Source: a virus (Duplodnaviria; Heunggongvirae; Uroviricota; Caudoviricetes). Taken from it: a DNA stretch of 64,000 bases. Position 1 is the first letter of the stretch; every line of letters starts with the position of its first letter. Both the position numbers and the translations under genes were made by a program. The notes beneath the pieces are model-generated. The model saw only the letters and a list, made by a program, of their open reading frames with translations. It had not been told where the DNA came from and did not search any database. Shown one piece after another: positions 32,001 to 33,062 of this stretch. Location: the IMG/VR virus record IMGVR_UViG_2799113139_000004. One strand, 5' to 3'.

Positions 32001-32658
32001 CGGCAAGGGCTTGATCACCGACGACACAAAGCCTCTGGGTTCGGAAGAGAACCCGCACATCTTCGCAGTCAACAACGCCAACGACTGGAAGACGTTCGGC
32101 AGCAAGATCACCCCACAGGAAAAGTCAGACTGGGTCGCTGGGCAGTACGACCAGACCCGCATCTACACCGGCAGCAGCTACACATCGATCAACGCTCACG
32201 TGCGGGCCGACAAAGAGCCGACCGACAAGATCAAGACATTTGACAAAGCGTTCCACGGGCACAACACATTTGAGGAGTACACGATCCTCAGCCGCGGCAC
32301 GCACCCAACCGAGTTCAACGACAAGAACAGCCTCGATGCGAAGTTCGGGTTCAACTCGACTCTGGAAGAGCTGAAGGTTCTCGAAGGCGAGACCTACGTC
32401 TCCAAATCGTATCTCTCAACGTCGATTACGACAGAGCCAGCGTTCCATAACCCGGTCCGCATCCTCTACAAGATGAAGCCGGGTCAGCGCGGCCTCTACG
32501 TCGGTGGCGACACGGATGGCAACTTCGTAACGCAGCACTCAGGCGAGCGCGAGGTTATCCTTCCCCGTAACCAAACGCTGAAGGTGATCGAAGTCCGCAA
32601 GTCAACATCGTCGTTCAAGGCCGACGTCATCGTGGAGGTGGTGGATCAACCTGTCTAG
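29068..32658 (+). CDS. MuF-like minor capsid protein fused to K/A-rich repeats, a kinase-like domain and a C-terminal R-S-E ADP-ribosyltransferase toxin domain
   Basis: N-terminus has the SPP1 gp7/MuF signature (RLASPGACEFCRLMATRGAVY ... HDNCHCVP). The mid region has a Gly-loop/Lys segment (HGATVYTDSKGQKWLVKG), a catalytic-loop-like GNHDTHAGQF and IGIDKG. The C-terminus has ART motifs R (YDQTRIYTG), STS (YLSTSIT) and ExE (GEREVILP). TTG start is uncertain. Confidence 0.7.
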   Translation: MPSLVEHANALKSVLGDLSTMSTKDLVALYKKLEGDGATGQELLDAFKAVFPEVVQPYIEAASDVANQWYGELAPEEPYKPTAVAAIDAVPPARMLNSIEWAFRAAGQAHPLNRLVGSAQRMVFDGARETILTNADAEQVKYARLASPGACEFCRLMATRGAVYRSARSAQAGHDNCHCVPAVSRGKLHFQRPGYYQDWDDEYVMIVRQLDAENVKPTLNAVLSKMRANAEAASNSGSTLVEMSTKASDTKAVKVHAWLSAEKKHNEAVAAWLDAEKVFTKKKAKAAAQAKYMAKKKQAAADTQAWLDAEAKFKADLPAWLAAEKDFNKKQSKAAAQAKYVAKKKAVTLWLKAEDQYKATQAQLKAAADAAKAAAEKAAKANATVNVDLKKASKALAAAKHAAKKKGDLTKYDELSQMTPAEYAASKGQAVAPKVTTAATAPVSMPETAATAKVGTASTATKPKTIVGELTDSPDVLASTGQVLGTHGATVYTDSKGQKWLVKGPKNPSDQFLVNLDAASAELQAKSGLTTPATYIMTVDGKRQSVQFMFPGSANAFPGGVSLDKISSADMLTIQKHHALDWLMGNHDTHAGQFIRTGTGELIGIDKGQAFKFFGGDKLDWNYHPNAKHGTPEPIYNTLYRQYAEGKLGGSLIDPSTGPLAQYIAGLQAIPDKEFRNMFRPYAESAAKSGKLLVEAHGTVPTNDVDAFLDAIVARKASLADDLNAYYGKAAVARQKVLGVAKPTIVVSTTDKSGLAGASGGISDYLTPKFVGAQFVATPMATAEDLKKAGKALASAKYIAKKKGDTAKLAELSNLTPQLYWEQKNSVTTVITAPTATPATALAIDQQTQLAKWQSDFTAKFGTSGVFQPVKALAVQKGIKLSDAIPEFDKEFGIGVLSVEQMTNLMGFYGPAIQSKWITKYQDVVGEDQAQKVWKALAADGKTSFKEPPPPPKPVVIKKGTKYTPEREQPDQLVKSMTGKGLITDDTKPLGSEENPHIFAVNNANDWKTFGSKITPQEKSDWVAGQYDQTRIYTGSSYTSINAHVRADKEPTDKIKTFDKAFHGHNTFEEYTILSRGTHPTEFNDKNSLDAKFGFNSTLEELKVLEGETYVSKSYLSTSITTEPAFHNPVRILYKMKPGQRGLYVGGDTDGNFVTQHSGEREVILPRNQTLKVIEVRKSTSSFKADVIVEVVDQPV

Positions 32659-33062
32659 TCCGATCCCCGCGCGCTGGCTACCGCCGAACGTCTACGACTT
32701 CATCAACGAAGAGCTGGGCGCGTTCTATGATCAGCCCGATTACCCCGGCGCTCGCGAAGGCACTGGTAGATACGTTGATCTATATGCCGACGATGCACTT
32801 GAACATCCGGTTGGCCGCCTCTGGACCAACGACTCTGACGCGTGCGGCCTGCTGCACGTCGCTGACGGTGACGAAGTGTTGTACGCGCGAACCGCGCTGA
32901 TGATGCGTCGCGAGCTGTCGTACGGTGCACCTGCCGGAAACACCTTCGACGTGATCCGTGGTGAGTGGAACGATGACGGCGCGCTCACGACCACCAATCT
33001 TGCAGACATCGAAGATTCTTCGATCGCGCTGAACGCCAATATCTAACTCGTAGAACCGAGTT

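Follow-up and report, generated by a model that had tools for sequence, protein, structure and literature searches.

MuF toxin genes of phages are commonly followed by small genes: in one survey, 89% of them preceded an open reading frame (ORF) of less than 150 amino acids, for which an immunity function was proposed, and the toxin was an ADP-ribosyltransferase (ART) in 14% (Jamet et al. 2017, PMC5576092). Neutralisation of the MuF-ART toxin Bxa is achieved by Bsi, which is encoded next to it and binds it, and by BAH, an ADP-ribosylhydrolase (PMC11699363), and so-called PT-Imm systems have been described in Mycobacteroides abscessus prophages (PMC8092301, PMC9434293). Here we analyze a locus of this kind in a 64-kb stretch of viral DNA (the window, whose numbering is used throughout), which shows 100% identity to Mycobacterium phage prophiFSQJ01-1 (BK061312.1; add 1847 to obtain coordinates of the record), a cluster MabR prophage of M. 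abscessus. The gene order is terminase, portal, MuF-ART, a small gene, scaffolding protein and major capsid protein. The small gene follows the MuF-ART gene (29068-32658) on the same, plus strand, extends from 32651 (or 32645) to 33046 and has no canonical start codon ahead of its conserved N-terminal motif. On balance, we consider it probable that this is a genuine gene for a cognate, non-enzymatic inhibitor of the ART, translated from a near-cognate start.

A preliminary description of the window had taken the small frame (window phase 2) as open from 32588, overlapping the MuF-ART frame and running to a TAG at 33053-33055. The opening, just after a TGA at 32585-32587, and the overlap, which extends to the toxin stop TAG at 32656-32658, were borne out by our analysis. 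The end was not: a TAA at 33044-33046 closes the frame, and the protein terminates in ...ALNANI instead of ...ALNANISNS. That canonical start codons come late in this frame is also right, but the first of them is a GTG at 32876, followed by TTG at 32879 and ATG at 32900, and does not fall at 32873 as had been indicated. Both non-canonical codons put forward earlier are present and in frame; the frame comprises 131 codons plus the TAA from CTG 32651, and 133 codons from ATC 32645. The product of about 131 residues and 14 kDa is acidic, as already noted from its sequence, with an isoelectric point of 4.08 and 23 Asp and Glu residues versus 8 Lys and Arg. The open stretch upstream of the initiation region (32588-32629) was discarded as due to chance, a TGA being found there in related prophages.

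The length of the open frame is in itself unremarkable, because the window, with a G+C content of 61%, contains 112 stretches of 153 or more codons without a stop. The frame nevertheless stands above chance because of the third-position bias of its substitutions, its ratios of nonsynonymous to synonymous divergence (dN/dS) and its membership in a family of 54 homologous cluster representatives. The substitution analysis compared five lineages, namely prophiFSQJ01-1 and its relatives prophiFSIL01-1, prophiFVLQ01-1, prophiFSAT01-1 and McProf, which are about 76% identical to the window in DNA. The preliminary description had tied the reality of the frame to its conservation in related phages, and the frame is indeed intact in five lineages out of five, from an invariant block at its beginning (see below) to the TAA, with no stop and no indel. 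Over 128 codons, variable columns numbered 40, 25 and 96 at codon positions 1, 2 and 3, and the same bias was found within 32681-32875, upstream of any canonical start (14, 11 and 46). Pairwise dN/dS between the window and its relatives ranged from 0.13 to 0.26, and from 0.11 to 0.13 over the first 75 codons, which precede the first canonical start and for which dS exceeds 1; among the five lineages, dS was about 0.5-1.5. Judged by these substitution patterns, the small frame is a genuine coding sequence under purifying selection along its full length.

The position of the N-terminus is constrained from both sides. Members of the family share the motif M-x(3-8)-P-[IV]-P-x-[RK]-[WF]-L, with columns conserved in 23-30 of 36 aligned sequences (P in 27, W or F in 30, L in 30), and PIPxRWL is also found in homologues of 32-47% identity. 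In the window, the corresponding PIPARWL codons (32660-32680, plus strand) begin one base past the toxin stop. On the upstream side, a TGA closes the small frame two codons before the invariant block in all four relatives (...WRWWINLS), with one codon, TCG or TTG, in between. The conserved motif at 32660 and the TGA of the relatives thus place a start, or a recoding event, within 32630-32659, where ATC 32645 and CTG 32651 are the only conserved in-frame near-cognate codons.

The invariant block itself (32632-32657, plus strand) is 26 nt long and the same in all five lineages. It serves both as the 3' end of the toxin gene (VEVVDQPV, then the stop) and as the initiation region and first codons of the small gene, and all other invariant runs in the 3.6-kb toxin gene and small ORF are shorter, the runner-up measuring 21 nt. 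It includes a Shine-Dalgarno (SD) sequence, GGAGGTG (32634-32640, plus strand), supplied by the Val-Glu-Val codons at the C-terminal end of the ART. This sequence is perfectly complementary to the 3' tail of 16S rRNA (-13.8 kcal/mol; the 67 annotated starts of the phage have a median of -7.1). Beyond the SD, dual coding from 32645 onward accounts for the invariance. Of the two candidate start codons, both on the plus strand and invariant in the five lineages, ATC (32645-32647) lies 6 nt from GGAGG, and CTG (32651-32653) lies 12 nt from it and would give an 8-nt overlap with the toxin gene. The SD spacing in this phage is usually 6-9 nt, 12 nt being found in one gene out of 45. On the other hand, the CTG aligns base for base with the ATG start of the family member P0005 from Mycolicibacterium (CAACATGCCTAGT versus CAACCTGTCTAGT), which has an identical 8-nt overlap. 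The number of residues preceding PIP, five from ATC and three from CTG, does not separate them, these being the two commonest values of the family with nine members each. Whichever codon is used, the start would be non-canonical; the spacing from the SD, the conservation and the lack of a canonical alternative upstream of the conserved protein sequence are all consistent with near-cognate initiation.

The recoding event left open by this interval would be a programmed +1 frameshift near the end of MuF-ART, by which the small protein would be made as a C-terminal extension of the ART with no initiation of its own. This had been offered in the preliminary description as the other way to account for the frame, and the overlap of the two frames, the +1 position of the small frame relative to MuF and the invariance of the block all agree with it. 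There is even a loose likeness to prfB, in that a strong internal SD precedes an in-frame stop and the frame beyond it is in +1. In prfB, +1 shifting is stimulated by an SD about 3 nt from the shift site. The likeness ends there, since the GGAGG core lies at the wrong distance, ending 14 nt before the last sense codon and 11 nt before CCT 32650, and no slippery codon is present, the sequence GAT CAA CCT GTC TAG offering no re-pairing of the CUU-U or CCC-N type. A scan of 32400-33300 found no Rfam element, and no structure rose above shuffled controls (z-scores -0.16 and -0.35). Moreover, the homologues examined outside the clade are all independent genes with their own ATG or GTG. We thus disfavor the frameshift, to which we attach a very low probability. 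A hairpin sequestering the SD, envisaged as a coupling device, was likewise rejected: all pairs proposed by RNAalifold fall in invariant columns and show no covariation, and the z-scores against shuffles are those just given.

The gene could also be real but start downstream, at a canonical codon, and yield a shorter product, from a TTG at the residues LPNG in three relatives and from GTG 32876 or ATG 32900 in the window. These are the sole canonical starts, and GenBank made use of them. In BK061312.1 the region is cut into gene 55 (32727-32900), in another frame, and gene 56 (32900-33046), which amounts to the C-terminal 48 residues of the real gene; we rejected gene 55 as its frame is unconserved and interrupted by stops in the relatives, and both entries look misannotated. 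The relatives are annotated with one gene of 122-138 amino acids in the small-gene frame, which begins in prophiFSIL01-1, McProf and prophiFSAT01-1 at the TTG that follows PIPxRWL, so that the motif is lost, and in prophiFVLQ01-1 at an upstream TTG. However, the downstream TTG is not conserved (it reads CTA, at 32678, in the window and CTC in prophiFVLQ01-1) and has no SD, and the SD energies of GTG 32876 and ATG 32900 are -6.1 and -1.8 kcal/mol, versus -13.8 kcal/mol in the invariant block. Translation from 32876 or 32900 would in addition cost the fold its most conserved half. The codons upstream are under strong purifying selection (dN/dS of 0.11-0.13, as noted above), PIPxRWL is conserved throughout the family, and residues 1-10 are modelled at a pLDDT of 84. 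Truncated products of this kind therefore appear highly improbable.

The small protein belongs to a family that has so far escaped description. A full HMMER profile search recovered the 54 cluster representatives, mostly of 120-140 amino acids, whereas a word-based search found four clusters only. The protein has no match in Pfam (E<=1), including the Imm and SUKH families of described immunity domains, and none in NCBIfam, PADLOC or PDB; it weakly matches phrog_9543, of unknown function. With an alignment of 36 sequences, AlphaFold2 (AF2) gave a confident alpha/beta model (pLDDT 92.5, pTM 0.86), five sequences being uninformative (pLDDT 44). The matches of this model in BFVD were confined to proteins of Mycobacterium, Gordonia and Microbacterium phages, all of them uncharacterised. 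Scans of genome-contig and metagenome-contig collections revealed no additional relatives, and a loose DNA pattern searched in viral contigs returned the known prophages and one further contig (L023), which was discarded as a chance match. One 618-residue protein from a Logan contig (P0033) carries the family domain at its C-terminus and, by eye, a GIY-YIG-like motif in its N-terminal part.

The genomic context of the family points to the function of the small protein. In 10 of the 14 contexts examined, a member lies directly 3' of an ORF with a C-terminal PF03496 domain or an ART annotation, with an overlap of up to 8 nt; over the homologues, the position ranges from a 1-nt gap after the toxin stop to this 8-nt overlap. 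The ART gene precedes the member in the MabR prophages, where it is a MuF-ART, in two further phage contigs with the order portal, VG15+ART, member, scaffold and capsid, in an IMG/VR contig (L012), in two other contigs (L016 and L018) and in phages Onyinye, Morgana and Sixama. It does so also in a bacterium, Mycolicibacterium sp. XJ870 (GCA_053483975.1; L013, 1-6008), in which P0005 overlaps by 8 nt the gene of a 6354-residue toxin. The latter has WXG100_2, SecA-like and glutamine-amidase-like matches and terminates in an ADPrib_exo_Tox domain homologous to that of the window. The arrangement is what would be expected of a toxin-immunity pair, as far as sequence can tell: a small ORF on the same strand abuts or overlaps the C-terminal toxin domain, and the family appears to track PF03496 across VG15/MuF proteins, other phage ARTs and a WXG100_2 toxin. 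Linkage to a toxin domain whatever the delivery domain, accompanied by orphan copies, is how cognate immunity proteins are classically recognised (PMC3482391, PMC5576092). The purifying selection, this linkage and the limits set on the start thus support the proposal of the preliminary description that the frame encodes a cognate ART immunity protein with a non-canonical start.

At these junctions, throughout the family, the codons of the last beta-strand of the ART (Val-Glu-Val/Leu, GTG GAG ...) double as the SD of the small gene. This was seen at 32629-32646 in the window and at the junctions of contigs L016, L018, L025, L026 and L028, and the toxins of several unrelated carriers end in (D)V(I/V)VE(V/L/I)V(E/D)Q...

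The toxin itself was identified by its Pfam matches and its GenBank annotation as a [quoted passage not shown], for which GenBank places the start at 29146. Its N-terminus matches PF25310 VG15 (E 1.5e-39, residues 7-203), the match on which the label MuF rests, and its C-terminus matches PF03496 ADPrib_exo_Tox (E 8.7e-16, residues 1010-1191, 32095-32640). A location between portal and scaffold genes in a prophage, and a C-terminal toxin domain with a homologue at the end of a WXG100 toxin, agree with its predicted assignment to the MuF toxin systems. C3-like ARTs are its nearest solved relatives. Read by eye, the R (32293-32295), S-T-S (32416-32424) and E-x-E (32545-32553) are intact, which we take, from general knowledge of C3-like ARTs, to be the catalytic motifs. 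Between VG15 and the ART, about 800 residues (29680-32090) have no Pfam match, and Lys/Ala-rich repeated segments are visible around 29800-30250 and 31350-31450.

Several points weigh against an inhibitor made from a near-cognate start. First, 4 of the 14 family contexts lack a recognisable ART upstream. In one of them (L006, 181-810) the member P0004, like P0012, which is also metagenomic, has no ART nearby and bears an extra N-terminal domain of about 70 residues with no Pfam match; the others are an orphan and degenerate copy (L015), a Gordonia copy (L029) behind an unassigned ORF of 266 residues, and a fragment of 50-56 residues (L014). Second, the AF2 model has no structural similarity to any solved immunity protein. 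Third, we cannot choose between the two candidate codons, the SD spacing favoring ATC and the positional homology favoring CTG. Fourth, all five lineages that carry the CTG/ATC block belong to a common clade and represent a single evolutionary event, kept nonetheless through more than one synonymous substitution per site. Finally, Ribo-RET in Mycobacterium tuberculosis revealed no general enrichment of CTG, ATT or ATC starts (PMC9094748), and starts at CTG or ATC are therefore rare in mycobacteria and expected to be weak. Two side observations concern these copies: P0004 and P0012 stand upstream of a gene whose product resembles, by eye only, the N-terminal part of HsdM, a type I restriction-modification methylase, and in L015 (1500-1580) a CTG lies in frame where a member of the family would be expected to start, 8 nt past a GGGAGG. 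We do not count the latter as a second non-canonical start, an in-frame GTG following a few codons on and the C-terminus looking frameshifted.

The rarity of such starts (PMC9094748) would also suit a decaying or silent remnant, the gene having been inactivated by loss of its ATG in the MabR ancestor and being no longer expressed; the homologue's ATG is indeed a CTG here and no canonical start is left. Yet a remnant would hardly have come through the synonymous divergence of the five lineages with no stop or frameshift, dN/dS of 0.11-0.26 and an unchanged initiation block, and an ART that looks active would be left unopposed. We give this explanation very little credit.

More serious is the possibility that the protein is made but acts as an accessory factor of the ART, be it a chaperone for folding or packaging, a specificity subunit or an activator. 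Linkage to the ART would fit any obligate partner equally well, and the absence of likeness to known immunity folds leaves room for such a role. To our knowledge, moreover, the packaged ARTs of phage T4 have no immunity protein. [quoted passage not shown] Copies that are orphan or fused and devoid of a toxin (L015, P0004) are typical of immunity genes, and a MuF-ART, Bxa, is known to need a binding immunity protein (PMC11699363). An accessory role is thus rather unlikely, although it deserves more consideration than the other alternatives.

We propose the following scheme for an ART inhibitor with a near-cognate start. Ribosomes that finish the toxin ORF, or that bind the strong SD, would initiate at CUG or AUC, the former route, translational coupling, being the probable source of initiation. 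The acidic inhibitor of about 14 kDa would most likely bind the ART domain in the producing cell during virion assembly and thereby keep the toxin inactive. MuF-ART would then be packaged and, in the way suggested for MuF toxins (PMC5576092), presumably delivered along with the DNA. The strong SD, the weak start codon and the overlap with the toxin gene would together couple the synthesis of the inhibitor to that of the toxin. One could go further and assume that the inhibitor is made only by ribosomes re-initiating from the toxin ORF at CUG or AUC, immunity being then strictly dependent on, and proportional to, toxin synthesis; we advance this stricter version tentatively and are more inclined to doubt it than to accept it.

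Downstream of the small gene, the intrinsic terminator announced in the preliminary description could be confirmed. It consists of an 11-bp stem with a 3-nt loop (33064-33088) and a T-run (33064-33093 in all, plus strand), located 18 nt past the stop of the small gene, and both stem and T-run are kept in all four relatives. In all five prophages this strong terminator falls inside the head-morphogenesis block, where it separates the small gene from the scaffolding gene (33064-33206 in the window), and in McProf it is followed by about 200 additional bases and an annotated reverse-strand ORF. This location suggests that the portal, MuF-ART and inhibitor genes on one side and the scaffold and capsid genes on the other form separate or attenuated transcription units.

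If the stricter version of our scheme is correct, the locus would provide the first conserved start other than ATG, GTG or TTG documented for an actinobacteriophage gene, and the family would be a new and structurally unprecedented kind of immunity to C3-like ARTs, common to phage capsid toxins and toxins of the T7SS type. The family also offers a concrete candidate inhibitor for M. abscessus prophages that are suspected of affecting the fitness of their host, and the locus is a natural test case in which to study how mycobacteria may initiate at near-cognate codons and couple translation. More generally, a conserved phage gene was missed here both by standard gene callers and by the rule of three start codons used in the annotation of actinobacteriophages.

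A closer parallel can be drawn with the Bxa-Bsi-BAH system of the Bacteroides stercoris prophage PhiBxa. In both, a MuF protein with a C-terminal ART is encoded in the head-morphogenesis module next to a small ORF, and both prophages encode an ADP-ribosylhydrolase. In the window the latter is GenBank gene 88 (57159-58181, minus strand), an ADP-ribosylglycohydrolase by its match to PF03747 (E 4e-45), of a type reported as common to all MabR prophages (PMC9434293). Unlike BAH, which adjoins its toxin, this hydrolase is encoded on the opposite strand at a distance of about 24 kb, within the lysogeny-side region. By analogy, it could add a further immunity, of enzymatic nature, against the capsid ART, or shield lysogens from superinfecting relatives. 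The locus also differs from PhiBxa by its actinobacterial host and by a small gene without a canonical start.

With the MuF toxins surveyed by Jamet et al. (2017), the locus shares a temperate phage, a MuF-type N-terminus, a variable C-terminal toxin and a small downstream ORF. That survey relied on called ORFs, mostly from Firmicutes, and since gene callers fail at this place, the locus would have been scored as one that lacks a proper ORF downstream. The same module of ART and small protein is found, at the end of the XJ870 toxin, in the WXG100/T7SS-type cassettes of Actinobacteria (Zhang et al. 2012, PMC3482391); in the window it is joined to a capsid protein and not to a secreted WXG100 toxin.

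As to the start codon, bacterial precedents exist in infC and pcnB, which begin with AUU. As in known near-cognate starts, the candidate codons stand behind a good SD and are conserved among relatives, their usage here being predicted. Unlike the starts of infC and pcnB, they are embedded in an overlapping upstream gene, with no known autoregulatory logic. E. coli is reported to initiate at CUG and AUC at a low level (Hecht et al. 2017, cited in PMC9094748). Altogether, a toxin followed by an immunity gene in a MuF locus is of a known kind. What is new is a conserved, misannotated gene devoid of a canonical start, which belongs to a family structurally unmatched and uncharacterised so far, with a confident new fold and a tie to C3-like ART domains.

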